From contig CAYPTJ010000032.1 of NCBI GenBank assembly GCA_964413845.1, positions 1-43,634 on the forward strand: a DNA stretch of 43,634 nt, given 5' to 3'. The position numbers and the translations under genes are program-made. Origin of the DNA: an uncultured Candidatus Saccharibacteria bacterium. Lineage in GTDB: Bacteria; Patescibacteriota; WWE3; 9FT-COMBO-53-11. Shown piece by piece: positions 3,918 through 29,220 of the stretch. Every line of letters begins with the position of its first letter. The stretch's first letter is position 1. A model generated the notes under the pieces. It worked only from the letters and a program-made list of their open reading frames with translations. It ran no database searches and had not been told where the DNA came from.

Positions 3918-4006
3918 GTCAGATATCGGATGTCAGATATCGGATTGCCAGATTGCGGATCTGATACCTGGAATCTGAAACCTGATATCTGATACCTGAA
4001 GTCTGG
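3918..4006. repeat. Long imperfect palindrome built from heptamer repeats between convergent genes; candidate bidirectional terminator.
   Basis: Left arm tcagata/tcggatg/tcagata/tcggatt/gccagat/tgcggat. Right arm ctgatac/ctggaat/ctgaaac/ctgatat/ctgatac/ctgaagt is approximately the reverse complement (shared tcagatatc core). Confidence 0.55.
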
Positions 4007-4693
4007 TTACTTTTCTTCTATTCCTTCAAACTTCCGGGCGGCTTTTTTGGCTTGTTGGGTGGCTTGTTCGAACTCTGTTTCTGCCTTTCGAATCTCCTGC
4101 TCGACCGCCTCCACCGCTTCTCTAGGGGTGGTTGCTTTCTCCATCGCCTCCATCTTCCGCATCGTTTTCTCCATCTTTTGGCGGGCAAGATCTAAAGCAA
4201 GATCCGCTTGGGTAATCCCCCTCTCCACTACCTCTTTCTTCCGTTCCTCCTCTTCCTTCTCCCTTTCTCTTTTTATAATCTCTTCTTTTCTCTCCTCAAC
4301 CTCAGGAACCCCTCTGGCGTAGGATTCAATGATATCCCTTACATAATCCACTACCTGCCGAGGGGGATAATCGGTTTTAACCAGGTAAGCAACCGCTCCC
4401 ATCTCCAATCCACGCTCCAAAATCTCCTGTCCCCCGCCTACATTGGTGAGTAAAATCACCGGAATCCCTGCCGTCTGGGGATCCTCCTTTATCTTTTTAA
4501 GCATCTCCAGCCCGCTCATCTTGGGCATCATGATGTCAAGAAGTATCAGTTCAGGTTTGAACTCCTCAACCTTTTTAAGTCCCTCCTCTCCATCCAAGGC
4601 AACCTCGACTTGATAACCGTCGTCGGAGAACTTTTTTTGGTACATGCGGGCGAGGACGGAGTAGTCTTCAACGATGAGGATTTTGGCAGCCAT
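4007..4693 (-). CDS. Response regulator: CheY-like receiver domain plus a ~100-aa E/K-rich helical tail, with no recognisable output domain.
   Basis: KILIVEDYSVLARMY...LILLDIMMPKMSGLEML...IPVILLTN...AVAYLVK receiver motifs. Tail is EERKEEIIKREREKEEEERKKE... Confidence 0.85.
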   Translation of the reverse strand: MAAKILIVEDYSVLARMYQKKFSDDGYQVEVALDGEEGLKKVEEFKPELILLDIMMPKMSGLEMLKKIKEDPQTAGIPVILLTNVGGGQEILERGLEMGAVAYLVKTDYPPRQVVDYVRDIIESYARGVPEVEERKEEIIKREREKEEEERKKEVVERGITQADLALDLARQKMEKTMRKMEAMEKATTPREAVEAVEQEIRKAETEFEQATQQAKKAARKFEGIEEK

Positions 4694-4730
4694 GGCTACA
4701 TCGTAGCAATTTCTAAATCCTAATTGCTCT

Positions 4731-4770
4731 AATCCGCCAAGGGCGGATTTAGCCCCGATAGATCCGGGGC
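4731..4770. other. Two adjacent GC-rich hairpins in the gap between the two tailed receiver genes.
   Basis: aatccgcc-aag-ggcggatt (4731-4749) and gccccg-atagatc-cggggc (4752-4770). Confidence 0.45.
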
Positions 4771-4822
4771 GTCATTTCTAATCAAGTCCCAATGTTTTCA
4801 ATTCCCAATTAGGTCAATTAGT

Positions 4823-5437
4823 TTACTTTTCTTCGAGTCCCTTTCCCAGCTCTTTGAGCTTTTCCATCGCTTCCTGGGCCTGTTTTTGAGCCATCTCCAA
4901 AAGGGTAGTTGCCTTTCTTACCTCCTCTTCGGCCGCTTCTTTTAGGGCCTTTTTTTCCCTTTCGGGCTTCTCTTCTTTCTTCTCCTCAACCTTCGGCGGG
5001 GGTGGAGGAGCTTCCTCCTCAGCCAGTGTTAGCGGGAGGGCAGGCTTTTTTACCTCCTTGCTGAGGGTTTCCTTGATCAGATTAATAACCTGCCGGGGGG
5101 CGTATTTTGCTTTGACAAGATAAGCAACCGCGCCAAGCTGCAGTCCGCGCTCAATCGTTTCAGAAGGTCCGCCGAGGTTGGTGAGTAAAATCACGGGAAT
5201 ATGGGCGGTCTCGGGAGCTTTTTTAACCTCCTCTAAGACCTCAAGGCCATCCTTTTTGGGAAGCATGATATCAAGAAGCACCAGATCAGGTTTGAGCTCC
5301 TTAATCATTCTTTCCCCCTCCTCACCATCCAAAGCGACCTCAACCTCAAACCCATCAGCCCTCAGCTTGTTCTGGTACATCCTCGCCAAAACGGCGTAAT
5401 CTTCAATGATGAGAATTCTTTGCTTTTCTTTGGCCAT
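4823..5437 (-). CDS. Response regulator: receiver domain plus a Pro-rich linker and an E/K-rich helical tail (paralog of 4007..4693).
   Basis: RILIIEDYAVLARMY...LVLLDIMLPKKDGLEVL...IPVILLTN...AVAYLVK. Tail is EEEAPPPPPKVEEKKEEKPEREKK... Confidence 0.85.
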   Translation of the reverse strand: MAKEKQRILIIEDYAVLARMYQNKLRADGFEVEVALDGEEGERMIKELKPDLVLLDIMLPKKDGLEVLEEVKKAPETAHIPVILLTNLGGPSETIERGLQLGAVAYLVKAKYAPRQVINLIKETLSKEVKKPALPLTLAEEEAPPPPPKVEEKKEEKPEREKKALKEAAEEEVRKATTLLEMAQKQAQEAMEKLKELGKGLEEK

Positions 5438-5453
5438 CTTACTTATTTTAAGA

Positions 5454-5482
5454 GTTTCCAGTTGTCAATTGCCAGTTTCCAA
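5454..5482. repeat. Heptamer array in the HK/receiver intergenic gap.
   Basis: gtttcca/gttgtca/attgcca/gtttcca with strict 7-nt phasing. Confidence 0.5.
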
Positions 5483-7129
5483 TTACTTCTTTCCTTTCGC
5501 CAAGGGCAAAGAGAAAGAAAACGTCGATCCCTTTCCGAGCTCGCTCTCAAGCCAGATCTCCCCCCCCATCCCCTCTACGAGTTGTTTTGAGATATAAAGC
5601 CCAAGACCTGTTCCGTGCCTTTCGCGAGCTAAGGTTGTCTCAACTGTATAAAAGCGTTTAAAGATGTGGGGTTGGTCCTTTTTGGCGATTCCAATTCCCG
5701 TGTCCTTTACCGATGTGATGAGTTTACCTTTTTCAGTTTGAAAAGAGATCATGATCTCCCCCTCGTCGGTGAATTTGATCGCGTTTCCCACAAGGTTGAT
5801 TAAAATTTCTCTAAGCTTGTCAGGATCAGCTTGAACCTGAGAAGGTCTGAGGGGGACAATCTCCAACTTCAGCCCCTTACGCTTGGCTGCTTCAGAGAGA
5901 TCGGTAACAACCTCTGATGCTACCGCCAGAAGGTCAATATTTTGCAGCTTGAACTCAATCTTTCCTCTCTCAACCCGGGAGGCGCTTAAAAGATCTTCTA
6001 CCAACCTGACCATCCGCTCGGTTGATTCGTAGGCGTCTTCGAGGTACGTCCTTACCTGAGGATTTATCTTCCCAGCGTCGCCTTCCAGGACCATATCTAA
6101 GAAGCCCTTAACACCGGTTAGAGGTGTCCGCAACTCGTGGGAGGCCATGGCGACAAACTCTCGGCGGGTGCGCTCAAGCTCCAACTCCTTGGTGATCTCT
6201 CTAAAGATAAGAACTGTTCCCACTACCTCTCCTTTGACATTGCAGATAGTCCTCGTATGAAGAAAGGCAGGTAGGCGCCCCTTATCCGCGGTTTCCATAA
6301 AAACCTCTCCAGAAAAAACCCCTGCCTTGCCGGCAGGCAGGCCAGATTTTGCCATATTGGCGATGAGGCATTCTTGCTCGCCGCATAAACGCTTTCCCTT
6401 TAGGTCGAAGATGTTAAGGACCCTGTGCTCCTCCTTTCCCAACAGCTCTTCCTCAGAAAAGCCCAGCGTTTTTCTCGCCTCTTCATTGTAAAAGCTGATC
6501 TGGTGATTTGGTTCAATCATTAAAACCCCATCTCCCATCTGTTCCAAAATGGTGCGGTAGTTTTCGGAAGTTTTTAGGGTTTCCCCATAGAGATGGGCGT
6601 TCTCCAAAGCCAGAGCAGCTGAGTCGCCAAAGGTGTCAAGGATCGCAAGAATGTCCTCTTCAAGCTTTTCCCCCTTCCCTTCCTCAACCAGAATCAACCC
6701 TAAATCCTCATCTGCCAAAACCAGGGGAATAAAAATGGCGCTTTCAAGGTCTAAAGTTTTAGCCAGGTTTTGGAGGTCTTTTTCTTTGGTAAACGTCTTT
6801 TGAGGATTGATCTGCCGAAAGGTCTTTTTCTCACGAAAAGCTTGTTTAAGCTGGGGATTTCGATCAACTTTAATCGTTAAATCTTTTAAAGAGGGAGGCA
6901 GCTTTTCGGTGGGCCGCCTAGGGCGAGCCTCGCCTTCGGCGGGGGAGGTGAGGTAGGAGGCAGCATACTTTAACCCTTCCAGCTGAGGAAGGAATAAAAA
7001 AGTGCGCTCAAAACCGAAAGATTCGTACAAGGACAGGGGGATTACCTCAGCAAGGGTCTCATAGTTTAAGATCCCTTTAAGGCTGGAGACGGATTTATAT
7101 AAATTAGCGAGGTGTGAATCTTCCTCCAT
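5483..7129 (-). CDS. Soluble sensor histidine kinase (GAF-like, PAS, HisKA, HATPase_c); no TM segment.
   Basis: H-box EFVAMASHELRTPLT, N-box NLVGNAIKFT, G-boxes DTGIGI and GTGLGLYISKQLVEGMGG. PAS-like GDGVLMIEPNHQISFYNEEA. Confidence 0.9.
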   Translation of the reverse strand: MEEDSHLANLYKSVSSLKGILNYETLAEVIPLSLYESFGFERTFLFLPQLEGLKYAASYLTSPAEGEARPRRPTEKLPPSLKDLTIKVDRNPQLKQAFREKKTFRQINPQKTFTKEKDLQNLAKTLDLESAIFIPLVLADEDLGLILVEEGKGEKLEEDILAILDTFGDSAALALENAHLYGETLKTSENYRTILEQMGDGVLMIEPNHQISFYNEEARKTLGFSEEELLGKEEHRVLNIFDLKGKRLCGEQECLIANMAKSGLPAGKAGVFSGEVFMETADKGRLPAFLHTRTICNVKGEVVGTVLIFREITKELELERTRREFVAMASHELRTPLTGVKGFLDMVLEGDAGKINPQVRTYLEDAYESTERMVRLVEDLLSASRVERGKIEFKLQNIDLLAVASEVVTDLSEAAKRKGLKLEIVPLRPSQVQADPDKLREILINLVGNAIKFTDEGEIMISFQTEKGKLITSVKDTGIGIAKKDQPHIFKRFYTVETTLARERHGTGLGLYISKQLVEGMGGEIWLESELGKGSTFSFSLPLAKGKK

Positions 7130-7520
7130 GGTTAATTTTTTCCCGCCCTAAGGCAGATTGAACCTTGCCAACGACCCCCTTCATCGTATAGTCAGATTTT
7201 TTGATAAAGTCTCGTGCCCCCAGCTGAATTGCTCTTTGGACCTCCTCCCCTTCACCAGAAAGATTAGAAAGGACTAAAACCGGGATGTTTCTCGTCTTGG
7301 GGTTTTCTTTTAACCTTCTTAAAGCCTCGAAACCATCCATTCCTGGCATCACGATGTCTAACAGTATCACATCGGGAGGATCGGAAGAAGCAGACTTGAG
7401 ACCTGCAAGGGCATCGGTGGCAACATTTACCTTGTAGCCCTCAAAGTCAAGTTTGGTTTTGTAGAGCTTGACCATCAGCTGGTCGTCTTCTATTAGAAGG
7501 ACCTTCTTTTTTTTAAGCAT
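7104..7520 (-). CDS. Single-domain response regulator (receiver only).
   Basis: KKVLLIEDDQLMVKLY...VILLDIVMPGMDGFEAL...IPVLVLSN...ARDFIKK. The 3' end overlaps the HK start by 26 nt. Confidence 0.85.
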   Translation of the reverse strand: MLKKKKVLLIEDDQLMVKLYKTKLDFEGYKVNVATDALAGLKSASSDPPDVILLDIVMPGMDGFEALRRLKENPKTRNIPVLVLSNLSGEGEEVQRAIQLGARDFIKKSDYTMKGVVGKVQSALGREKINHGGRFTPR

Positions 7521-7646
7521 GCGAGTTTATTTTAGGCGAAGGCGGGGTAGCCAATCAAGGCTTGGCTAAGGGGTTGGTATTTGGTCGCAAGCCAAACATC
7601 TTAATTACAAGTTTCGAATTAACCAATCAACTGGAAAATCGCCCTA

Positions 7647-8060
7647 TCAGGCGCTTTTAACTTCCGGAAGCTCGTCTCTTTTGGTTGCGGCCAAAATCTC
7701 CTTCACTTTTACGACCACCTGGGAGGGCCTGAGCTGGCTTTTGACAAGATAGGTGACCGCCCCTAGCTCCAAGCCTTTTTCGATATCTTCTTCGCCTGAA
7801 TCTCTCGCTAAGTTGGTCAAAAGAATGACCGGTATATTTTTGATCTCGGGATCTTTTTTTACCTCCCCTAAGACCTCAAGGCCGTTCATTTTGGGCATCA
7901 TGATGTCCAGAAGCACCAAGGCGGGCTTCTCTTCTTTGATCTTTTTGAGCCCGTCCCCGCCGTTTAGAGCAGTAATAACCTCCAAACCATCCTTCCTGAA
8001 CTTTTGTTCATACATGGTGACGAGAAGTCGATCATCGTCAATGATAAGAACTTTGGCCAT
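7647..8060 (-). CDS. Single-domain response regulator (receiver only).
   Basis: AKVLIIDDDRLLVTMY...LVLLDIMMPKMNGLEVL...IPVILLTN...AVTYLVK. Confidence 0.85.
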   Translation of the reverse strand: MAKVLIIDDDRLLVTMYEQKFRKDGLEVITALNGGDGLKKIKEEKPALVLLDIMMPKMNGLEVLGEVKKDPEIKNIPVILLTNLARDSGEEDIEKGLELGAVTYLVKSQLRPSQVVVKVKEILAATKRDELPEVKSA

Positions 8061-16123: not shown

Positions 16124-17830
16124 TCAAGCAAGCTCTGATTCCTCCCCCGTTGCTTGGGGCGGGGGGGTGACTTTAGCTAAGCCAGGAAGCCTGCTACTAA
16201 GTTCATGAATCAGCGAAAGCTCCTTAATCCTTAAAAGTTTCGCCGCAAGAAGATAAACTGCAATTCCAACTGCCGCTACAACCACAGTGAGAATAATTAC
16301 ATTTACCGTGTAGCGAGTATCGAGGACAAACTTCTCAAACCTTTCTGGTAGCGTGAGGTAGCCAAGAAAAGAGAGACGTCTGTCCCAGGCACTCCGGTCC
16401 AGAACCTTAAGAAGAACATACATCGTTCCTCCAGAGAAAAAAGAAGCAATCCCCACTTTCAAAAGCGGGTAGATCATCTGCCAAAGGGCTATCCCTGCTT
16501 TTGCGGCAAGAAGGCAGGCTAAAACGACCATCTGCAAAATATTAGCCAAGGCAAAAGCGAAGGCAATCCCCCATACCGGTGTTTTAAGAACCAAAATAAA
16601 ACATGCTGAAAGTGTGATATTCACCAAAACTGTTCCCACTCCCACTTTTACCGGGGTCAAAGTATCCGAGAGCGCATAAAAGCTTTTTACCAAAAGAGAG
16701 GTAAGAGCTTGAGCAACAATTCCCACCGCAAAGGCCGAAAGGGCGTAGCCGGTGGCAACGGTAGATTCCCACGTGAAGCGGCGAGTTCCAAAGGCAAGCC
16801 GAACTGCGGGAACTCTAAGGATAATAAGAGCGACCGCAAAAAAGGCAACCAGAAAGATTATCTGTCTAAAGGTTGTTAAAAATGTCTCTCGGAATTGCTT
16901 TAGGTTTTTCTGTTGATAAGAAAGGGCAGGTAAAGCGGCGTCGGCCAACGAAGTCCCAAAGAGGGAAACGGGAATCGTCGCCAGGTGAGAAGCAAAAGTG
17001 AAGTAACCATATGAGGCGGTTGAGATAAGAGAAGAGAAAAAAAGATCAGAGGTCTCCAAAATCTGCCAAAATCCAATCTCCAATGTTCTTGGGGCAGCAA
17101 GGTTGATAATTTTCCTTACCCCCGGATGAAAGATATTTAAAGAGGGTGTAAACCGAAACCCAAGGTGAAAAGCAAGGGGAAGATGAATTGCAAAATAGAT
17201 AAAAGCACCCCCAACCGCCCCCCACACGGGGGCATAAATTCCTAGCTTTCCAGCAAGAAGAAAGATGCCAGCAATGATTCCTAGATTGTAAAAAAGAGGG
17301 GCAATCGCTGGAACTAAAAACCGCTGAAAGGATTTAAGGATACCGGTAAGAAAGAGAGAAAGGACAAAAAATCCTTGGGCGATAAGAAGGATTCTTGTCA
17401 TCGAAGCCATCAACCCAAGCTCTTCCACCGAAAAACCGGGAGCAAGAAGCCGTGAGAAAGGATAAGCAAAGAAGAAGATGATCGCTGCTAAAGCCAAGAA
17501 GAAGATAAGAGTAAGGTTCATTACTGTTGCGGTCACTTCCCAAGCTTCCTTCTTTTTTCCTTTTGAAATATAAGAGATAAAGGTGGGAATAAAGGCTGCC
17601 GAGAGCGTCCCCAAAATAAGAATTTCAAAAAGAGTGTCAGGAAGACGGAAGGCAGCGAAATAAAGCCCAATTTTGCTCTCACTAAAAAACTGGGCTAAGG
17701 CTCTATCCCGAACAAGCCCCAGAATCCTCGAGGCAAGAGTGAAGATCGACAAAAGCACTGCCGCCGAGAGAATATCCGGCTGCTTTCGATAAAAGGGTTG
17801 CAAAATTGAGCTGAGTGCTCGGCGAAGCAC
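16124..17830 (-). CDS. murJ: Lipid II flippase MurJ/MviN.
   Basis: 568 aa, about 14 TM. N-terminus AAVLLSIFTLASRILGLVRDRALAQFF is typical of MurJ. GTG start. Confidence 0.85.
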   Translation of the reverse strand: MLRRALSSILQPFYRKQPDILSAAVLLSIFTLASRILGLVRDRALAQFFSESKIGLYFAAFRLPDTLFEILILGTLSAAFIPTFISYISKGKKKEAWEVTATVMNLTLIFFLALAAIIFFFAYPFSRLLAPGFSVEELGLMASMTRILLIAQGFFVLSLFLTGILKSFQRFLVPAIAPLFYNLGIIAGIFLLAGKLGIYAPVWGAVGGAFIYFAIHLPLAFHLGFRFTPSLNIFHPGVRKIINLAAPRTLEIGFWQILETSDLFFSSLISTASYGYFTFASHLATIPVSLFGTSLADAALPALSYQQKNLKQFRETFLTTFRQIIFLVAFFAVALIILRVPAVRLAFGTRRFTWESTVATGYALSAFAVGIVAQALTSLLVKSFYALSDTLTPVKVGVGTVLVNITLSACFILVLKTPVWGIAFAFALANILQMVVLACLLAAKAGIALWQMIYPLLKVGIASFFSGGTMYVLLKVLDRSAWDRRLSFLGYLTLPERFEKFVLDTRYTVNVIILTVVVAAVGIAVYLLAAKLLRIKELSLIHELSSRLPGLAKVTPPPQATGEESELA

Positions 17831-17853
17831 ATCAAAATGCTAACATAATATCG

Positions 17854-17912
17854 CTAGGGTCTAGGGGTTAGGGTCCTTGAAACTCCAGTCGCTAATCGCT
17901 AAACCCTATTCG
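17854..17912. repeat. Heptamer arrays upstream of rpsT.
   Basis: ctagggt/ctagggg/ttagggt, then gtcgcta/atcgcta/aacccta/ttcgc. The arms are partially inverted (tagggt versus acccta). Confidence 0.5.
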
Positions 17913-17920
17913 CAAAAAAG

Positions 17921-18151
17921 ATGCCTCACCTTAAAAGTGCTGCAAAACGTTTGCGGCAGAGCCGTAAACGGGAAATAGGAAACAAAAAAATTAAAAACCA
18001 GATCGAAAGGTTAGTGAAAAAAGCACGAAGTGCAAAAAACCTCTCCACCATCTATAAGGCAATTGATAAGGCGGTCAAGCGTAAAATCTTTCACCCAAAT
18101 AAAGCCGCGAGGATGAAACAGATGTTGAGTAAGAGATTAGCCGCTAAATGA
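17921..18151 (+). CDS. rpsT: 30S ribosomal protein S20.
   Basis: MPHLKSAAKRLRQSRKREIGNKKIKNQI..., 76 aa and basic. Confidence 0.9.
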   Translation: MPHLKSAAKRLRQSRKREIGNKKIKNQIERLVKKARSAKNLSTIYKAIDKAVKRKIFHPNKAARMKQMLSKRLAAK

Positions 18152-18247
18152 TTGTTGAGGGAGGCGCAAGAAACCAATTTCGAGGAACCCTCCAGAGGCG
18201 GGCAGGCATCCCGCAGATCCTTGGCGAGGGTTTTCCCAAAGCGAAGT

Positions 18248-18362
18248 CCCGCAGTGTCTGAGCCAACCACCCGCCAGAGGCGGGACGGAGGTACAGGAAG
18301 AAGCAGGGCAAGGAAACCCCTCACTCCCGTACCGAAGCCTGAAAGGTTGGCAAGTTTGCAGG
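18248..18362 (+). ncRNA. Candidate structured RNA or conserved intergenic element, copy 1.
   Basis: About 115-nt core with nested stems: P0 cccgca/tgcagg, P1 gccaacc/ggttggc, hairpin cccgcc-aga-ggcggg, P3 ggtacagg/cccgtacc. It shares a perfect 30-mer (ggtacaggaagaagcagggcaaggaaaccc) with copy 2. It lies in the implausible N-terminal extension of ORF 18152..18970. Confidence 0.4.
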
Positions 18363-18421
18363 ACGAGAGTAGGGAAACCCGAGCAAGCACCTCCGAGAAA
18401 TTCGGTTTCCGAGCCAAAACT

Positions 18422-18970
18422 ATGGAGAAAAAAGGCATTGAACTATTAGAAAAGGCTCCACCGTCAAAGCTCAAGCAAACAATTGTTGCAACCACAAAGA
18501 AAGTTGGATTACCTCTGGCAATTGCGATCCAGCTTATCTTTCTAACCCTCCTCGGTTTTTACTTCAAGTTAAATTGGGACCTTAATGCTCTTTCTGCCTC
18601 AATCGACGAGAAAGAAACCGTTCTTGAGCAAGGGAAAGAGTTAGAAACTCTCTTCCGCCGAACCCAAAATAAACTCGAAACGATTGCCGCTGTTAAAGAG
18701 GATTTTTGTTATCCCTGCGCCTTAAAAATCCTTGGGAAGATCACTCCCGCCTTGGTTAACTTCAACACAGTCATAATCGAAGGTGAAAAACTTTCGATTG
18801 TCGCTGAAACCTTCCATGGGCCCTCCTTGGCGCTTTTTGTTGCAAACCTTCTTGAGGAGAAGGCGATTAAAGAAGTGGTCATTACCTCCGGAAGCTTAAG
18901 CGAGGATGGACGTTTTAACTTTACGATGGAGCTGTGGTTTAACAAAGCAGAGGTAACCCAAAATGACTGA
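18422..18970 (+). CDS. Type IV pilus assembly protein PilN-like.
   Basis: Start taken at MEKKGIELL (ATG 18422). Short N-terminus, one TM (LPLAIAIQLIFLTLLGFYF) and a coiled segment. C-terminal pattern: VNFNTVIIEGEKLSIVAETFHGPSLALFVANLLEEKAIKEVVI...FNFTMELWF. Confidence 0.6.
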   Translation: MEKKGIELLEKAPPSKLKQTIVATTKKVGLPLAIAIQLIFLTLLGFYFKLNWDLNALSASIDEKETVLEQGKELETLFRRTQNKLETIAAVKEDFCYPCALKILGKITPALVNFNTVIIEGEKLSIVAETFHGPSLALFVANLLEEKAIKEVVITSGSLSEDGRFNFTMELWFNKAEVTQND

Positions 18971-19674: not shown

Positions 19675-20384
19675 GAGGTCAGCTTCCTGATAAGAAGATC
19701 AAAGGTAACCGCATCGCCCTTGCCTTTTTTAATATTTAAGTCTTCCTTAAGAAGTAGGGAGAAGGCACAGGCAAGCTCTTCTTCTGTAAAATTTCTCTCC
19801 AACCGCTGCAACTTTTCCAGAACATAAGGATGAAATCCCTTTTTTACTTTTCCTTTTACCTTTGCAAGATTTCTCATCTGCCAGACCACCATCGTCAAAA
19901 GAAAATGAACATCTTCTCCTGACTTTATCAGGCGATGGGCTTGCGCGAAAGCTTTCTTTCTATCCTTCGCAACCAAAGCGTCAAGAAAAGGAAAGGCATT
20001 TTTTGGAACCTCCTCGCGAAAGTAGAGGATCTTTAACTGCCGGTCGTGGGGAAGCTTCTCTGGTGGAATTTTTTCAGCAAAGATAAGCGCGACATCCTTG
20101 TCACCCGCTTTAATAAGCTCCATTAATTTTGACAATTCAGCAAGGGGGGGCTCCTCAATAATCACCAACTCCCGCCTACCGGCGGGTAGGCTTTTTTGAC
20201 TGAAGAGGGTCGGTGAGGCAAGATACATAGAGAGTTCTGCAAACCCTCCCTTGCCCTGCCCGTCCGGCAGGTGGGCAACGGGCAGGTCTTTCTCCCAAAA
20301 AACCGCCTCCTCGTATCCCTTTTTGAGTTCAAGCAAGGCATCCCGCAGGGCCGGTTGGTTTTCCCCGTGAAAGAGATAAATCAT
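19671..20384 (-). CDS. holA: DNA polymerase III delta subunit-like (HolA).
   Basis: N-terminus MIYLFHGENQPALRDALLELKK and the overall length and helical C-terminal half resemble compact HolA proteins. Contains two GC-rich hairpin-encoded loops. Confidence 0.5.
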   Translation of the reverse strand: MIYLFHGENQPALRDALLELKKGYEEAVFWEKDLPVAHLPDGQGKGGFAELSMYLASPTLFSQKSLPAGRRELVIIEEPPLAELSKLMELIKAGDKDVALIFAEKIPPEKLPHDRQLKILYFREEVPKNAFPFLDALVAKDRKKAFAQAHRLIKSGEDVHFLLTMVVWQMRNLAKVKGKVKKGFHPYVLEKLQRLERNFTEEELACAFSLLLKEDLNIKKGKGDAVTFDLLIRKLTS

Positions 20385-21466
20385 TCAAACAGCAGCTCCC
20401 GCACCGCTTTGTGGATCGCATCAAAGTTTCCTCCTTTGGGGACAAGGATATAGGCGCCACCGTAAAGGGAAGGTTTTCCCACATAGGTTAGCTTGCTCTC
20501 TGGATCGAGGACCAAAGTTTTGACCTCCTCCAGATCTTGAAAGTTGTAAAGGAGTTCCAAAGCCCGCTGCGTCTCGCCCAAAGAGGCGTTCATCTTGATC
20601 GTTTTCGTGAGTTGGTTGTAAAGTTTAATCACCTTCCCCGGATTAAGGAGTAAAGAGAGAGAGAGAATCTTGTCCTTCACCGCCAGGATAACTTTCTGCT
20701 GACGCCGTACCCGGGCAAAGTCAGAACCTTCTCCTCCGGCGATTCCCCTCCGCGAACGGCTGTACTTCAAGGCCCGCTCCCCGTTCATCTTCTGGCAACC
20801 TTTATCAAAATGGAGATGCTCATAGCGCTGAGAGAGCGGGGCGTTCTCCTTTCCCGGAACGGGATAACCATAGTCGTCGAAGGTCCGCTCGACACAAACC
20901 TCAATCCCACCGAGAGTATCAATAATCTCCTTAAAGCCTTCAAAGCCCACCACTACCCAGTAATGAAGGGGGATTCCCAAAACCTGCTCAACCATCTTTT
21001 TGGCCGCTTCCACTCCCTTCCCCTCATCAATCTTTCCGTTTAGCTGCACCGCTGCGAAAGCGTAAGCGGAGTTAATCTTTCCTTGACCACCGGTTGCGAA
21101 AGAAACCCAAAGATCACGAGGGATAGAGATTAAAGCGGGGTCCCCCCCGCTTAGGGAGAAGGAACCAACAAGAATTGTATCGGTGTTAAGCAGGCCACCA
21201 TTGGCACGGGTATCCAAGCCCAAGATTAAAGCATTCACCCGTCCATCAGTTTCTTTGAGCTTGGTGGGATTGATAAGGCGGGCTACAAACGAGATTGGGG
21301 AAAAAAGGGCAGTTAAAAGATCGCCTTGCCAGAGAACAAAACCGCCCCCCAGAAGAGAAAGCAGCACAAGGAAACCAACGATCAATCCAATCTTTTTTAA
21401 GCGGCGGCGCTTTTTAATTTGTCGCTCCTGGTCAAGATCAAGGTTGTGCATCAAAGTAATTTTCAC
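20381..21466 (-). CDS. LytR-CpsA-Psr (LCP) family cell-wall polymer ligase.
   Basis: N-terminal TM, then VNALILGLDTRANGGLLNTDTILVGSF...ISIPRDLWV...INSAYA. Confidence 0.85.
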   Translation of the reverse strand: MKITLMHNLDLDQERQIKKRRRLKKIGLIVGFLVLLSLLGGGFVLWQGDLLTALFSPISFVARLINPTKLKETDGRVNALILGLDTRANGGLLNTDTILVGSFSLSGGDPALISIPRDLWVSFATGGQGKINSAYAFAAVQLNGKIDEGKGVEAAKKMVEQVLGIPLHYWVVVGFEGFKEIIDTLGGIEVCVERTFDDYGYPVPGKENAPLSQRYEHLHFDKGCQKMNGERALKYSRSRRGIAGGEGSDFARVRRQQKVILAVKDKILSLSLLLNPGKVIKLYNQLTKTIKMNASLGETQRALELLYNFQDLEEVKTLVLDPESKLTYVGKPSLYGGAYILVPKGGNFDAIHKAVRELLFE

Positions 21467-23077: not shown

Positions 23078-23317
23078 TTATTCTTCGGCAATCTCAAAAC
23101 AATTGGCAGGACAGATATCGCGAATCTCCTTGTAATCTGTCTTTTGGCCATAGTCAATGACCGCTTTGAAACGGGGTTGGCCAGGTTTAACTTTTCGAAT
23201 CTGAATAAGAGAATCCGAGTACGAGAGCTTACCTTTTGTCACTCGGGAGGCAACCAACTCGCAAAGTCCACAACCAATACAATCCTCCATTCTTGCCGCT
23301 TTGAGGATTTTCGCCAT
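23078..23317 (-). CDS. Small [4Fe-4S] ferredoxin.
   Basis: CIGCGLCE (CxxCxxC) plus a distal CPANC. Its stop lies 2 nt before the AOR start. Start taken at MAKIL; a GTG at 23338 is an alternative. Confidence 0.65.
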   Translation of the reverse strand: MAKILKAARMEDCIGCGLCELVASRVTKGKLSYSDSLIQIRKVKPGQPRFKAVIDYGQKTDYKEIRDICPANCFEIAEE

Positions 23318-23340
23318 CTCAAGAGATAAGGGTATCACAT

Positions 23341-23375
23341 TAAGTGATTAGTAATAAGTGATAAGTGATTAGCGA
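23341..23375. repeat. Heptamer array upstream of the ferredoxin-AOR operon.
   Basis: taagtga/ttagtaa/taagtga/taagtga/ttagcga. Confidence 0.55.
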
Positions 23376-23413
23376 ACAGGAGAAAGGGCGAGGGATTTTG
23401 AGAAAGCGCAGCG

Positions 23414-23527
23414 TTGCAGTGTCTGAGCCAACCCCGAGCGCAAGTCGAGGGGAGAAGGTACAGGAAGAAGCAGGGCAAGGAAACCCTTCGCTCCTGTACT
23501 AAAGCCTAAAGGTTGGCGAGTTTGCAA
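23414..23527 (+). ncRNA. Candidate structured RNA or conserved intergenic element, copy 2.
   Basis: Same architecture as 18248..18362: P0 ttgca/tgcaa, P1 gccaacc/ggttggc, a hairpin of different sequence closed on a gcaa loop, and P3 ggtacagg/cctgtact. Same + orientation. Confidence 0.4.
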
Positions 23528-23575
23528 GCGAGAACTTGAAATCCCGAGCCTGAGGCCTAGCCGTGAGCCAAAGGC

Positions 23576-24598
23576 TCAATCATAATGGCCAAGGGCAACA
23601 AGTCCGGGGAGTTTTTTTCCAGCGAGAAATTCAAGCATCGCTCCACCACCAAGGGAAACGTAACTTATCTTTGAGGCAAGACCAGAGGCGTTTAAGGCGG
23701 CAATCGTGTCTCCCCCGCCAGCAATCGTCTTCCCCGGCAAAAGTGCCAACTCTTCCGCGATCATCCGCGTCCCTCGCGCATAGCGAGGTTTTTCCCAAAC
23801 CCCCAAAGGCCCGTTCCAAACAACCGTCTTTGCTTCCTTGATAATCCCAGTAAAAAACTTGACCGACTTTGGCCCGATGTCATAAGCGTCCTTAGCATCA
23901 ATTGGAAAAACAACATTGGGGATCCTCTCAAGTTCCCGAGAAAACATCAACAGTCCTCCAAGAAGGACCTTATCGGCAATCTTCGCAAAAGCCGGTACAA
24001 GTGGTTTCTTGGTCTCTGTCTTTGCCCCCCCGATGATAAAGATCAGCGGCCTCTCTGGCTTCACCAAAACACTCCCCAACTCTTTTACTTCCTCCTCCAA
24101 CCTTAACCCTGCATAGGCAGGGAGGTGCTTTGGTATCTCAACAATCGAGGCGTGTTCCCGATGGGAAGCAGCAAAGGCGTCGTTGACAAAAATATCGCCC
24201 AGCCCCGCCAATTTCTTGGCAAAACCTAGATCGTTTTTTTCCTCACCGTCCCAGAATCTTAAATTTTCCAAAAGGGCGATATTTGGTAATTGGTAATTGG
24301 TAATTGGTAATTCGGGGAAGAACTCAATCCGTTTTCTCAAAAGCTCCTGAAGACGCACCGCTACCGGTTCAAGGGAGAGTTTTGGATCCCTCTTCCCCTC
24401 CGGTCGCCCAAGGTGTCCAATGACAATTACCTTTGCTCCTCGATCAAGAAGATACTTGAGGGTGGGCAGGAGCGCTTTAAGACGTGTATCATCGGCAACT
24501 TCAACTTGACCAACCCCTGCCTGCCGAAGAGGCAGGTCCAAATCCGCGCGCAGGATTACCTTTTTCCCGGAAACTTTAGCTGCCTTTACCGACTTCAT
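23576..24598 (-). CDS. pgk: Phosphoglycerate kinase (compact, 340 aa).
   Basis: KKVILRADLDLPL...DDTRLKALLPTLKYLL, LLENLRFWDGEEKNDLGFAKKLA, FVNDAFAASHREHAS, GGGDT, SLGGGAMLEFLAGKKLPG. Confidence 0.9.
   Translation of the reverse strand: MKSVKAAKVSGKKVILRADLDLPLRQAGVGQVEVADDTRLKALLPTLKYLLDRGAKVIVIGHLGRPEGKRDPKLSLEPVAVRLQELLRKRIEFFPELPITNYQLPNIALLENLRFWDGEEKNDLGFAKKLAGLGDIFVNDAFAASHREHASIVEIPKHLPAYAGLRLEEEVKELGSVLVKPERPLIFIIGGAKTETKKPLVPAFAKIADKVLLGGLLMFSRELERIPNVVFPIDAKDAYDIGPKSVKFFTGIIKEAKTVVWNGPLGVWEKPRYARGTRMIAEELALLPGKTIAGGGDTIAALNASGLASKISYVSLGGGAMLEFLAGKKLPGLVALGHYD
24283..24312. repeat. Four perfect tandem copies of the heptamer ttggtaa inside pgk.
   Basis: ttggtaa x4 followed by tt. 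On the coding strand it encodes ELPITNYQLPN in a variable loop just before the LLENLRF motif. Confidence 0.9.
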
Positions 24599-24655
24599 CT
24601 TACTTTTTATTCTACCCTATTGACGGTAGTTTAGGAAAAATTCCCTTCTGTTAGA

Positions 24656-25051
24656 ATGGTTATTGTGAGAAAAGACATAATAATTGGAATCCTGGTCGTG
24701 TTTGCGGGTCTGTACCTTTTTCTTTTCCTAGCGCTTCTTAGTTTTGTTATCAGCTCAAGTCAACACTTCCTCCCCGAGGGAATCCTCCTTATTATTCCGG
24801 CAGTTTTAGGGTTTCTTCTTTACAAAAAGTGTGCGTTGCCGTACCTTGAATCAATTGAAGAGGGGGGCAACCTGACCCGTAAAGAGGTTTGGGAACAGTC
24901 TCCATACAAGGAGATCGGTTTGGTACTTTTTACCCTGCTGATGCTGACAGCGATCCTCGTCAGCGGAACTATCGCAACCAGTAAACAAGGAGGCTTAATC
25001 CAAGTCGCCCACGAAAACTTTAACCTCCTTTTGGAACTGCTTAGAAGATAG
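24656..25051 (+). CDS. Hypothetical membrane protein (about 3 TM).
   Basis: Hydrophobic helices only; no family recognised. Confidence 0.4.
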   Translation: MVIVRKDIIIGILVVFAGLYLFLFLALLSFVISSSQHFLPEGILLIIPAVLGFLLYKKCALPYLESIEEGGNLTRKEVWEQSPYKEIGLVLFTLLMLTAILVSGTIATSKQGGLIQVAHENFNLLLELLRR

Positions 25052-25071
25052 CTCCGCGACTATCAGAGATT

Positions 25072-25980
25072 TTAGAGGAACTTGAAGGTGGAAAGAACCT
25101 GATTAAAGATTTGCAGGGATGTGATACTGCCTGCAAATGTTGTCGAGAGCTCAAAAACCCGCGTGTTAAAGAAGCCGTAAGCATAATATTGCGGTCCAAA
25201 AGTTACGATGGTGTCGCTTGAAACATACCAATCGTCGCTACGGTTCCAAGTTATTTCCTTTGTCAACAAGCCACGTATTGAACTGTCGTTTTCTATCCAG
25301 CTAACTCCCGTCCTGCCTGAGGTGTTCTGGTAAACCGTAATTGTCATCCAAGGAAATTCCCCCACGGGATAAACACCATAGGAAAAACTAACTCCGTCTG
25401 AACTTTCCGCTACCCTCGCTACATCTCCTGGATATTTAATTGAGAACCCAAGAGTTGTATTCTCGTAAGTGTTCCAATTCTTGAACGGGTCTACCGTGGA
25501 AAAGGTAGAGTCTTCAGAGACAGCTGGATTGCCAGCAACATCTTTAGACTTCACCCGGAAGTGGTAGAGGGTTCCTTTTGTGAGCCCACTAAGAGAAACG
25601 GAGTGGGAAGTTACTAAAGTGATATCTTCCGTTGTTTGGGAGCCGTAACTTGTGGTTGCTCCATACTCTACCTGAGAAGTCGCCTCTACATCGGTGGTCC
25701 AGCTAATGGTAGCTCCAGTTTCGGTGATGTTTGTCGCCTTGACGGAGGAGATTACAGGCGGTTCTTTCTCCTCTTCTCCTCTTCCAAAGAACTCCTTGAC
25801 ACCTGCGGGAAGGAAGTTATCAAGATAAGTTGTCCTCCAAGCGAGAACAGATCCTACTCCACCAAAGACGATGATGAAGGCGATCAGCAAGAAGATTAGC
25901 TTCTTCCGAGGAAATCTCTTAGGGGTTACCGCTGGTGGCTGGATTGGTGGTTGGGCTGGCGTAGTCTGTTGTTCTTCCAC
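25072..25980 (-). CDS. N-terminally anchored surface protein: TM, FN3-like module and a C-terminal beta domain ending LSTFKFL.
   Basis: The FN3 module (PPVISSVKATNITETGATISWTTDVEATSQVEYGATTSYG...LYHFRVKSKDVAGNPAVS) is homologous to those in ORF 1..2160. GTG start. The N-terminal 65 aa are homologous to the next gene. Confidence 0.65.
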   Translation of the reverse strand: MEEQQTTPAQPPIQPPAVTPKRFPRKKLIFLLIAFIIVFGGVGSVLAWRTTYLDNFLPAGVKEFFGRGEEEKEPPVISSVKATNITETGATISWTTDVEATSQVEYGATTSYGSQTTEDITLVTSHSVSLSGLTKGTLYHFRVKSKDVAGNPAVSEDSTFSTVDPFKNWNTYENTTLGFSIKYPGDVARVAESSDGVSFSYGVYPVGEFPWMTITVYQNTSGRTGVSWIENDSSIRGLLTKEITWNRSDDWYVSSDTIVTFGPQYYAYGFFNTRVFELSTTFAGSITSLQIFNQVLSTFKFL

Positions 25981-26061
25981 TTCTTCTATATTCTACATTC
26001 GGCCAAAGGCTGAAAGCAAGGAGCGCAGCGATGCTACAAAACAGGGGCGTGTCAAGAAATC

Positions 26062-27279
26062 TCAGAGGAACTTGAAGGTAGAAAGCATCAAATCGTAGAT
26101 TTCTCTGTATTTGGTTTCTTCACGTTCATATTGCGAGTAGCGAATAGCAAAAGTAAAGAAATAAACTCTAGGAGGGTGGGAAGCAGTTCCGCTCTGGGCA
26201 ACAGCTGATCCAATTTTGTATAAACGGTTGTCCGCTATGAACATGAACGCAACCTGCTCCCCTTGCACTCCTCCGATGGTAATAGATTTCCTTTCAGCTT
26301 TGCATCCCTCCATGCAGAATAGCTCGTCTTCGTCACATTCTTCTTTGGTGCAATCTTTACATTCTCCTTCTTCTTTGCACCTTTTAACAGAGATAAGAGG
26401 GTCTGGAATCCCGCCTGGGTACGCTTGCACAGCAATCAAAACTACCTCGCCTCCTTCATGTTCCATATCTTCCCGTTTAACGAAGAAGTACGCCAGGGGT
26501 GAACTTTGCGCCAGAGTCCCCTTACCACCACCGGTAAGCCATGTTGAAGGATATTTAATCGAATATCCATACTTTTCATTTTTGAGAGTCTTCCAACCTT
26601 CGGTGGGGTCTTCCTCAGGGAGGAACGCAAAAGTGGAGATCATTAAATCATAAATTTCCCTGTGTTCAATCTTGTGTAGGTTGAAGTAATAAATCCTCCG
26701 CTGATATGTTCCTTCGCGAAAGACGGCCGAGTAAACCCAATCAAGATCCAGGAAGATAACCTGCTCCCCCTGTAGACCTCCGATGGTGACAGATGTCCGT
26801 TCCACTTTCTGTTTTTCCCCGTATAGCTCATCGTCAATAAGGGGATCCGGGACATCACTGCCCGTTGGCAACGTGACGGCTGTAACCACAATCGCTTTTG
26901 AGGCAAGGTCTCCTGGCCCAAGATTTTCCTTACTGGTTTCAAAAACCACCTGTCCTTCTTTAGTACTGCCGTAAACCCAGGTTGGCGGGTACTTTAGCTC
27001 ATAAGCACGTTTTTCATCTTTGTAAGTCTTCCAATTCCTAGTCTCCTCCTCAACTTCTCCAGGTGTCAGCTCCCTGCGTTCCTCACCCCTTCCAAAAAAC
27101 TCCTTCACCCCTGCCGGAAGATAGTTATCAAGGTAGGTTGTCCTCCAAGCGAGAACCGATCCTACTCCACCAAAACCAATGATAAAGGCAACCAAAATAA
27201 GAATTGGCTTCTTCCAAGGAAATCTTTTAGAAGGGGTAGGTGTTGGGTATTGAGAGATAGCAACTTGTTGTTCTTCCAC
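26062..27279 (-). CDS. N-terminally anchored surface protein with two internal copies of a W-x-T-Y/L-K-x-E-K-x-x-Y-x-[LI]-K-Y-P domain.
   Basis: Repeat 1 is WKTYKDEKRAYELKYPPTW...IYDLMISTFAFL. Repeat 2 is WKTLKNEKYGYSIKYPSTW...IYDLMLSTFKFL. It shares its N-terminus and C-terminus with 25072..25980. Confidence 0.65.
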   Translation of the reverse strand: MEEQQVAISQYPTPTPSKRFPWKKPILILVAFIIGFGGVGSVLAWRTTYLDNYLPAGVKEFFGRGEERRELTPGEVEEETRNWKTYKDEKRAYELKYPPTWVYGSTKEGQVVFETSKENLGPGDLASKAIVVTAVTLPTGSDVPDPLIDDELYGEKQKVERTSVTIGGLQGEQVIFLDLDWVYSAVFREGTYQRRIYYFNLHKIEHREIYDLMISTFAFLPEEDPTEGWKTLKNEKYGYSIKYPSTWLTGGGKGTLAQSSPLAYFFVKREDMEHEGGEVVLIAVQAYPGGIPDPLISVKRCKEEGECKDCTKEECDEDELFCMEGCKAERKSITIGGVQGEQVAFMFIADNRLYKIGSAVAQSGTASHPPRVYFFTFAIRYSQYEREETKYREIYDLMLSTFKFL

Positions 27280-27325
27280 TTCTTCTATATTCTACGAGAT
27301 GGGGGGGGCGTGTCAAATCAAGGAA

Positions 27326-28941: not shown

Positions 28942-29220
28942 CGTGCTTCACTAACGTGGCGTCGCTTCGCTCCTTCCTTTCTCGCTTTCGCTCGAATGTA
29001 ACGACTAAGACCATCTTCACTCAAAGTCAAAAGCGCTAGACTCGTTCAGAAGGAACGCGGGGTATCATTTTCGAGGAACATCCCGCACCCCGCACCGCAT
29101 AACCATCAAGAAAGCAGATAAGATTAGGTGCGGGGGAGGGCGAAGCGGCACGGGAAAAGACCTTAAATTAAAGAAAGATAGCGAACGCTGTTTCCGAGAA
29201 AATCAGTACCCGAGTCCCTT

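Follow-up and report, generated by a model that had tools for sequence, protein, structure and literature searches.

The window analysed in this report is the 43,634-nt stretch 1–43,634 of contig CAYPTJ010000032.1 of assembly GCA_964413845.1, from an uncultured bacterium of the candidate division WWE3 (Katanobacteria), a lineage of the candidate phyla radiation (CPR). It contains two copies of a structured element, located in two intergenic spacers. The order of genes around them is MurJ (−), rpsT (+), copy 1, a PilN-like gene, PilO, a holA-like gene (−), LytR (−), AFOR (−), an open reading frame (ORF) of 79 aa (−), copy 2 and PGK (−). The PGK homologues of the window are named candidate division WWE3, and its AFOR protein is found with identical sequence on Crystal Geyser metagenome contigs and in three metagenome-assembled genomes at NCBI. 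Copies 1 and 2 are paralogues from a new, low-copy family of structured non-coding elements that is specific to WWE3. The family is genuine and previously undescribed; it is folded, non-coding, insertion-polymorphic and absent from Rfam.

A first-pass annotation, made from the letters of the contig alone, had proposed two related segments on the + strand about 5 kb apart. Alignment and repeat finding confirm both, with a spacing of 5165–5167 nt. The copies share the long identical blocks that had been described, an exact 18-mer (GCAGTGTCTGAGCCAACC) and an exact 30-mer (GGTACAGGAAGAAGCAGGGCAAGGAAACCC). A shared 30-mer has a chance expectation of ~1e-9 in 43.6 kb. The proposed extent of ~115 nt is too short. 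Similarity and structure span a core of ~165 nt that is 73% identical between copy 1 and copy 2, and the folded unit measures ~155–170 nt, or 240 nt in members of the copy-1 type.

Copy 1 lies inside the Arg-rich N-terminal extension of the PilN-like ORF, as had been suspected. The true start of this gene is the ATG at 18422, and the PilN-like calls of 272 aa and 238 aa are annotation artefacts that read through copy 1 (window 18152–18421). Copy 2 was placed between pgk and a ferredoxin gene, antisense to both. Its position between PGK and the 79-aa ORF, both on the minus strand, stands; the ferredoxin assignment reduces to sub-threshold 4Fe-4S matches, and the ORF is termed ferredoxin-like (fdx) here.

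Nine distinct members of the family score 133–157 bits with the covariance model R1: the two copies of the window and one each from the loci L027, L037, L038, L048, L050, L051 and L053. All nine are from WWE3 genomes or metagenomes. A scan of 185,579 species genomes with a 20-mer of the core yielded one true match, WWE3 bacterium CSP1-7 (L027), with a single exact-core match in that record; the other 19 of the 20 matches are chance matches in coding sequences of unrelated phyla. L037 and L038 are from a metagenome scan that left out this species' own variant. L050 and L051 were reached by a translation search of the always-open frame, via the spurious minus-strand 'hypothetical proteins' P0127 and P0132. 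A profile search of such spurious-ORF translations also led to P0128, P0130, P0131 and P0133, which are long tandem-repeat proteins unrelated to the element. L048/L049 and L053–L055 are syntenic relatives fetched via PGK homologues, and their copies were found with model R1. Three viral-contig scans gave nothing relevant, and the covariance model had no match in L039–L046. Pairwise core identity among the members ranges from 54 to 96%, corresponding to ~5 subtypes. With filters off, R1 finds two copies in the 43.6-kb window. Among the loci examined, the density is one copy per ~20 kb in L048 and in L053, and L052 has none.

The fold consists of a long closing stem that opens into a three-way junction. 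P0 denotes the outermost helix and P1 the outer helix; helix 3, helix 4 and the variable hairpin correspond to P0, P1 and P2, respectively, of the first-pass annotation. In the closing stem, GA-rich internal loops separate P1, a 2-bp helix, helix 3 and helix 4; the arms of the junction are the variable hairpin and P3. A GA/GA loop is located at the base of P1, and the joining strand AAAGCGAAG is conserved (RNAalifold and pair counting). The asymmetric internal loop before helix 4 is conserved as well (UGUYUGA versus RAGU) and could form tandem G·A pairs. The pairings originally proposed from the two copies are all present: CCCGCA/TGCAGG in copy 1 versus UUGCA/UGCAA in copy 2 (helix 3), GCCAACC/GGTTGGC in both copies (helix 4), a hairpin in equal position with sequences unrelated between the copies (variable hairpin) and GGTACAGG with CCCGTACC or CCTGTACT (P3). 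The outer helix is compensatory between the copies: copy 1 has GGGUUUU/GAAACCC, copy 2 has GGGAUUU/AAAUCCC.

The sequences of the variable hairpin in copy 1/L048, in copy 2 and in L051 are unrelated to one another, and five members lack this hairpin. The apical domain of P3 (GGAAGAAGCAGGGCAAGGAAACCCYUCRCUCC), on the other hand, is near-invariant and occupies ~45 nt at the top of the arm. A hairpin of variable length combined with an invariant apical loop is a pattern typical of functional RNAs. Members of the copy-1 type (copy 1, L048, L038 and partly L051) have an added 5' module and the outermost helix P0. The 5' module hairpin of L051 is GCGGG/CUCGC with one mismatch. In copy 1, P0 is formed by residues 18170–18188 and 18390–18409 and has a tandem GA/GA internal loop inside. 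Its outer part is fully compensatory between copy 1 (GAAACC/GGUUUC) and L038 (GGAGAU/AUCUCC), as judged by minimum free energy folding and alifold with L048 and L038.

Standard pairs are present in 91.3% of the cells of the nine-sequence alignment, compared to 31–48% with the partners slid by 1–3 columns. Among the 45 pairs, 22 are changed on both sides (3–8 when the partners are slid). None of 500 column shuffles matched the observed paired fraction, number of double changes or covariation score. The changes are most evident in P1 with its base extension (helix 1), where 11 of 13 pairs are changed on both sides; accordingly, the sequence of the outer helix differs from subtype to subtype. Plain MAFFT alignments with RNAalifold give the same helices as the model-based pair counting. 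The proposal of a novel structured RNA is thus supported by strong covariation with seven further homologues and by the lack of an Rfam 15 family. The free covariation of the stems, the dispensable hairpin and the invariant, asymmetric apical domain together argue for a functional folded nucleic acid that is recognised by a conserved partner.

Covariation alone fits a folded RNA and a folded single-stranded DNA equally. The consensus structure is stabler on the purine-rich (+) strand in all nine members (alifold −52.5 versus −48.1 kcal/mol). The eight-member alignment A8 contains 17 G·U cells versus 10 A·C cells, and one G·U pair is kept in six members. This evidence favours an RNA from the + strand, but to a moderate degree only.

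Table 1. Coordinates of the two copies, their structural parts and the adjacent genes in the window.
Feature	Position	Strand	Remarks
rpsT–pilN spacer holding copy 1	18152–18421	+	270 nt
Full-length folded copy 1	18170–18409	+	closed by outermost helix P0
5' module hairpin GCGGG-caggcau-CCCGC, copy 1	18198–18214	+	also in L048 and L038
Core of copy 1	18220–18388	+	covariance-model match, 152.6 bits
Outer helix P1, 5' strand, copy 1	18228–18238	+	pairs with 18370–18380; GC-GA/GA-GC at base
Outer helix P1, 3' strand, copy 1	18370–18380	+	pairs with 18228–18238
Helix 3, 5' strand, copy 1	18247–18254	+	pairs with 18356–18363
Helix 4 GCCAACC, copy 1	18262–18268	+	pairs with GGTTGGC 18345–18351
Variable hairpin, copy 1	18270–18284	+	P2 of the first-pass annotation
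Arm P3, copy 1	18290–18333	+	stem GGUACAGG/CCCGUACC covaries
Whole insert of copy 2	23338–23578	+	241 nt, relative to empty L048 PGK–fdx spacer
Heptad repeat array TAAGTGA, 4.1 copies	23341–23369	+	within copy-2 insert, directly 5' of core
Core of copy 2	23384–23553	+	covariance-model match, 138.2 bits
P1, copy 2	23392–23402 with 23535–23545	+	
Helix 3, copy 2	23413–23419 with 23522–23529	+	
Helix 4, copy 2	23427–23433 with 23511–23517	+	
Variable hairpin, copy 2	~23434–23453	+	
P3, copy 2	23457–23500	+	
3' tail hairpin GAGCCUGAGGC/GCCAAAGGCUC, copy 2	23546–23577	+	
rpsT (ribosomal protein S20), upstream neighbour of copy 1	17921–18151	+	
PilN-like gene, downstream neighbour of copy 1	18422–18970	+	true start 18422
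PGK, convergent with copy 2	23576–24598	−	within block only ~76% identical to L048
79-aa ferredoxin-like ORF upstream of AFOR	23078–23317	−	start codon 20 nt from left junction of copy 2

The spacers that hold the two copies are short in relatives. The rpsT–pilN spacer measures 3–35 nt in five relatives, and the PGK–fdx spacer is 258 nt long in the window versus 17 nt in L048. Thus, both copies are part of inserts of ~240 nt. The element had been regarded as a conserved feature of these two spacers, which it is not: it is dispersed, insertion-polymorphic and missing from the orthologous spacers of relatives, both close and distant, and therefore resembles a mobile element. No match of the element to a known mobile-element end was found. 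The inserted cassette (~220–260 bp) comprises an upstream region with heptad repeats or the 5' module, the core and a short hairpin tail. Even genomes that are ~95% identical differ in whether a given intergenic site carries it.

L048 is a close relative of the window (93–96% DNA identity in AFOR, S20 and GAPDH). Its member resembles copy 1 and occupies a third site, immediately at the stop codon of GAPDH. A member at the same GAPDH site is present in the more distantly related L053 (PGK 63% DNA identity to the window), with the outer helix touching the stop codon. The members of L048 and L053 indicate long retention at one site. In L052, the spacer at the GAPDH site has 5 nt and no element. 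The 96% core identity between copy 1 and the member of L048 is no sign of unusual conservation; with 93–96% DNA identity outside PGK, it is unremarkable.

The insert of copy 2 is bounded by ATCA (23334–23337 and 23579–23582), or TCA, which might be a target-site duplication. The right flank is located in a divergent PGK allele, so the comparison with the empty site is imperfect. The last three bases of this insert (TCA, 23576–23578) form the PGK stop codon on the minus strand. In at least five of the nine members, the 3' end of the element is 0–10 nt from the stop codon of the convergent gene (PGK, GAPDH twice, radA and sigma-70). In L051, the MurA stop codon is ~40 nt beyond the core, and in L050 the corresponding side is masked by N. 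The orientation with respect to host transcription is variable: copy 1 is sense and copy 2 antisense, both within co-directional gene pairs.

L056, from another WWE3 lineage, contains a decayed copy-2-type remnant of 144 nt at the PGK–fdx site (2471–2614), with the left junction as in copy 2. The heptad repeats and the outer helix are kept and the ~115-nt core is deleted. This remnant contains the PGK stop codon, which is spanned by an 8-bp hairpin (CCGAGGUG/CACCUCGG). The same-site remnant in L056 (PGK 78% amino-acid identity) and its absence from L057 are suggestive of copy 2 entering together with its PGK allele. By sliding identity, both copies of the window are located at the edges of blocks divergent from L048; copy 2 begins a block that includes the 76%-identical PGK and a 2.7-kb indel. 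As these blocks are presumably recombined, the copies may have come by homologous recombination with neighbouring DNA.

In the L051 locus, positions 3965–4000 contain a bidirectional intrinsic terminator of canonical form (GGGTTAGGAAA..TTTCCTAACCC), flanked by T-runs on either side and located just upstream of the 5' module. The element of this locus sits between the MurA stop codon and the terminator.

A different non-coding element of ~175 nt is present in the window at 29040–29215 (+), in the spacer between GAPDH and a 49-aa ORF/VTT. This is the site at which L048 and L053 have their members. It has the P0 frame AUUUUC-GA-GGAA ... UUCC-GA-GAAAAU in common with the family, as well as the 5' module pieces TTTTCGAGGAAC and CATCCCGCA, but not the core. 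Its centre is a 9-bp hairpin (CCCCGCACC/GGTGCGGGG) with AAGAAAGCAGATAAGA in the loop. Model R1 does not detect it. Heptad arrays upstream of the core, analogous to that of copy 2, are found in L050, L053, L037, L038 and L056.

Rfam 15 (4227 models) has no match at gathering thresholds over the whole window. Searches with both copies at E up to 10 gave weak, unrelated noise only (DUF3800-XI, sR32, RAGATH-32, PinT and PhotoRC-I, 11–14 bits), and L037, L038 and L050 have no match at E up to 1. The initial failure to recognise a riboswitch, ribozyme, signal recognition particle (SRP) RNA, RNase P RNA, 6S RNA or tmRNA is thereby borne out. In the literature, no paper was found that joins WWE3 with non-coding RNA or contains the core sequence. 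The neighbouring genes (rpsT/pilN, fdx/PGK, VTT/GAPDH, radA, sigma/MurA and EamA/sigma-70) and the orientation differ among members, which rules out a riboswitch or cis-regulatory leader. Copy 1 is identical over 13 nt to a 3' portion of E. coli 5S rRNA (CGAGAGUAGGGAA); this stretch is not kept in copy 2 or other members and has no model match. The element resembles the orphan metagenome motifs of Rfam type 'Gene; sRNA' (Weinberg-type), which were discovered through comparative genomics and are likewise intergenic and non-coding, ~150 nt long and of narrow phylogenetic range, with a compensatory multi-stem fold, purine-rich conserved loops and a variable-length hairpin. Unlike these motifs, the element is insertion-polymorphic among near-identical genomes and travels with flanks of heptad repeats or the P0 frame.

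The favoured reading, with a rough probability of 0.5, is that the element is a small structured RNA gene on a portable cassette. We infer its transcription, the transcribed strand, the binding of a partner and the mechanism of mobility. The functional form would be a predicted RNA of the purine-rich strand, which would be read either from the upstream region of the cassette itself or through read-through transcription. The role of the covarying stems would be only to present and protect the invariant purine-rich domain of P3. This domain would be the platform to which a conserved partner binds, with a protein as the most likely candidate. This putative partner may be a component of a host ribonucleoprotein (RNP) or a factor that spreads the cassette. 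Several points weigh against this assignment. The counting alignment was fitted to the model, which somewhat inflates the paired fraction, and the nine sequences in ~five subtypes represent few independent events. The excess of G·U over A·C is modest and compatible with a fold of single-stranded DNA. Scans around all nine members showed neither a sigma-70-like promoter nor a consistent intrinsic terminator, and a partner protein was not identified in the analysis. Furthermore, the polymorphism, the decayed copies (L056 and window 29040–29215) and contigs ending within the element (L047) fit a selfish mobile element as well. A more far-reaching proposal is improbable: that the element is a mobile RNA gene of a kind new for CPR bacteria. 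The invariant apical domain of its small structured RNA would recruit a dedicated protein, and this protein would both form an RNP and copy or move the ~240-bp cassette in an RNA-guided or RNA-templated manner, with a preference for insertion at the 3' ends of genes. The P0 frame shared with 29040–29215 would then serve different RNA cargoes as a common scaffold for their delivery or expression.

As the main alternative, the element could be a non-autonomous DNA mobile element like REPINs or the palindrome-associated transposable elements (PATEs) derived from IS200/IS605, whose single-stranded DNA would fold, whose centre would be bound in trans by a HUH/RAYT-type or other recombinase and whose RNA would be incidental. 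This is possible but doubtful. It agrees with the insertion polymorphism at three sites among 93–96% identical genomes, the clean junction of copy 2 with a repeat of 3–4 nt (ATCA/TCA), the occurrence in either orientation relative to host transcription and preferentially in gene-end spacers, the imperfect inverted termini of 16–20 nt in copy-1-type members, the decayed remnants and the modest strand asymmetry of wobble pairs. However, the most conserved part is the asymmetric centre and the termini covary freely, which is the opposite of REPINs and of elements with terminal inverted repeats (TIRs). Inverted termini are absent from copy 2 and the type B members, and no transposase, integrase or reverse transcriptase is present in the window or the fetched loci. 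The position of both window copies at the edges of recombined blocks would also permit homologous recombination instead of transposition. The low copy number and the conservation of the centre instead of the ends argue against an ordinary miniature inverted-repeat transposable element (MITE) or REPIN. The proximity to stop codons described above, the stop codon that the element supplies in copy 2 and L056 and the location in L051 between the MurA stop codon and a bidirectional terminator would suit an RNA module that acts in cis where transcription units end and separates the convergent or tightly packed genes of a compact genome, be it as an insulator, a stabiliser, a processing site or a structured 3' end. 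Such a role is nevertheless unlikely. An invariant purine-rich domain of 45 nt and a three-way junction far exceed the needs of a terminator or stabiliser, relatives have spacers of 5–35 nt without the element at the same sites and the strand that enters the mRNA of the neighbour varies among members. The bias for ends of genes is also explainable by selection against insertions near promoters.

That Rfam misses a divergent member of a known RNA class (SRP RNA, 6S RNA, a riboswitch or a guide RNA of IS110, TnpB or IscB) is very improbable. The size of 150–240 nt is within the range of omega and bridge RNAs, and the sequence GGAAG(G)AAGCAG..CAAGG locally resembles E. coli 4.5S RNA. The stretch GGAAGAAGCAGGGCAAGG is similar to the 3' strand of helix 8 of bacterial SRP RNA (GGAAGGAAGCAGCCAAGG), although the topology is not that of SRP RNA. 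In the element, the motif is on the opposite (5') side of the hairpin, and the GNRA tetraloop that caps helix 8 in domain IV, a hairpin with symmetric and asymmetric loops, is missing. The apical loop is CAAGGAAA, closed by GGG/CCC with AGCAG on the 5' strand, and the Bacteria_small_SRP model does not match at E up to 10; a bacterial small SRP RNA was thus rejected. None of the five members searched has any such Rfam match, and no TnpB, IscB or IS110 gene is adjacent. Furthermore, two divergent copies per genome, relatives that dispense with the element at the same sites, and variable neighbours and orientation are not in line with a known RNA of this kind or a leader. The chance that a small protein is encoded on the minus strand, in a frame reading ...TGAKGFLALLLPVPP..., is smaller still. 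This frame is open over the core in all five members examined, and such ORFs are called in public annotations (P0127, P0129 and P0132). Nevertheless, the frame changes from one conserved block to the next through indels whose length is not divisible by three; GCAGTGTCTGAGCCAACC gives VVGSDTAG in copy 1 but GLAQTLQ in copy 2. The would-be third codon positions of the core are invariant, and substitutions are compensatory across helices. As the conserved blocks change frame and the core is invariant at third positions, the element is not protein-coding; the scarcity of T in the sense strand is what keeps the minus-strand frame open.

As annotation artefacts of this frame, 'hypothetical proteins' of 62–134 aa are called on the minus strand of the element (window 18091–18495 (−), L050 2196–2384 and L051 3629–3970).

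Like REP/REPIN sequences and MITEs (Correia, ERIC, RUP and BOX), the element is a small foldable extragenic insert, often between convergent gene ends, that occurs in either orientation, is variably present among close relatives and has decayed copies. It differs from them by its low copy number, by a three-way junction instead of a simple long hairpin, by an invariant centre with covarying ends and by the lack of conserved TIRs and, in the window and the fetched loci, of a RAYT or transposase. With the PATEs and the omega or right-end RNAs of IS200/IS605 it has in common the lack of classical TIRs, structured sub-terminal regions and a comparable RNA size. As with PATEs, the insert is next to a short sequence that looks specific; for copy 2 this is TCA, present at its left flank and also at its right end. 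In contrast to PATEs, no TnpA, TnpB or IscB is nearby and the conserved domain is central and not at the right end. Moreover, the variable hairpin does not follow the target sequence, as it is almost the same in copy 1 and in the member of L048, which occupy different sites.

More specific assignments were likewise rejected. A MITE defined by conserved TIRs does not match copy 2, which has none, or the copy-1-type members, in which the termini pair and the outer part covaries. A many-copy MITE or REPIN does not agree with two copies in the window, one per ~20 kb in L048 and L053 and none in L052. An integron attC site would have R''/R' boxes (RYYYAAC ... GTTRRRY) at its base, a variable centre and an array beside intI. 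In the element, the base of helix 4 (AGCCAAC/GTTGGC) does not fit RYYYAAC, the centre is the most conserved part, and the inserts are solitary in core-gene synteny.

A large part of bacterial diversity belongs to the CPR. To our knowledge, almost nothing is known about the non-coding RNAs of these bacteria. A well-supported, lineage-specific structured element with an unusually invariant domain points to a putative binding partner in WWE3. Having been gained and lost recently between near-identical genomes, the element is also a tractable marker for recombination or mobility in organisms that cannot be cultured. In practical terms, the element produces annotation errors (PilN-like extensions and spurious minus-strand proteins) and breaks assemblies. 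A selfish REPIN-like element would be ordinary; the RNA of an RNP or a mobile RNA gene would be of interest to specialists in RNA and mobile elements.

Compared to L048, region 23338–27290 of the window is a mosaic. The DNA identity of PGK is 75.6%, versus 93–96% for AFOR, S20 and GAPDH. The 2.7-kb block missing from L048 (24591–27290) encodes a 131-aa ORF and a pair of paralogues that have internal repeats (25772–25922 with 27080–27230, and an exact 30-mer at 25967 and 27266). Further blocks divergent from L048 are 17748–18197 and 20271–20993. L047, from the same species, is 100% identical to the window except for 24177–24407 inside PGK, where the identity is 58–68%. This stretch holds a perfect TTGGTAA repeat (4.3 copies, 24283–24312) within the coding sequence and could be a strain-variable segment or an assembly chimera.

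Arrays with a period of 7 nt, in 3–5 copies and with a different heptad each time, recur intergenically in these WWE3 genomes, upstream of rpsT and immediately upstream of most element copies. In the window they are located at 2174–2301, 3918–4005, 8639–8674, 17854–17875, 23341–23369 and other positions, and elsewhere in L033 (1–100), L037 (~470–505), L050 (~2370–2400) and L053 (~8625–8660). They may be a product of slippage or, alternatively, an architecture specific to the lineage that serves as a promoter or for protein binding. Four tandem response-regulator genes around a GAF-PAS histidine kinase (4007–8060) form repeat family D1, and two or three large paralogous secreted proteins with dockerin/Big-like repeats (families D5–D7 and D13) are encoded at 8888–15037.

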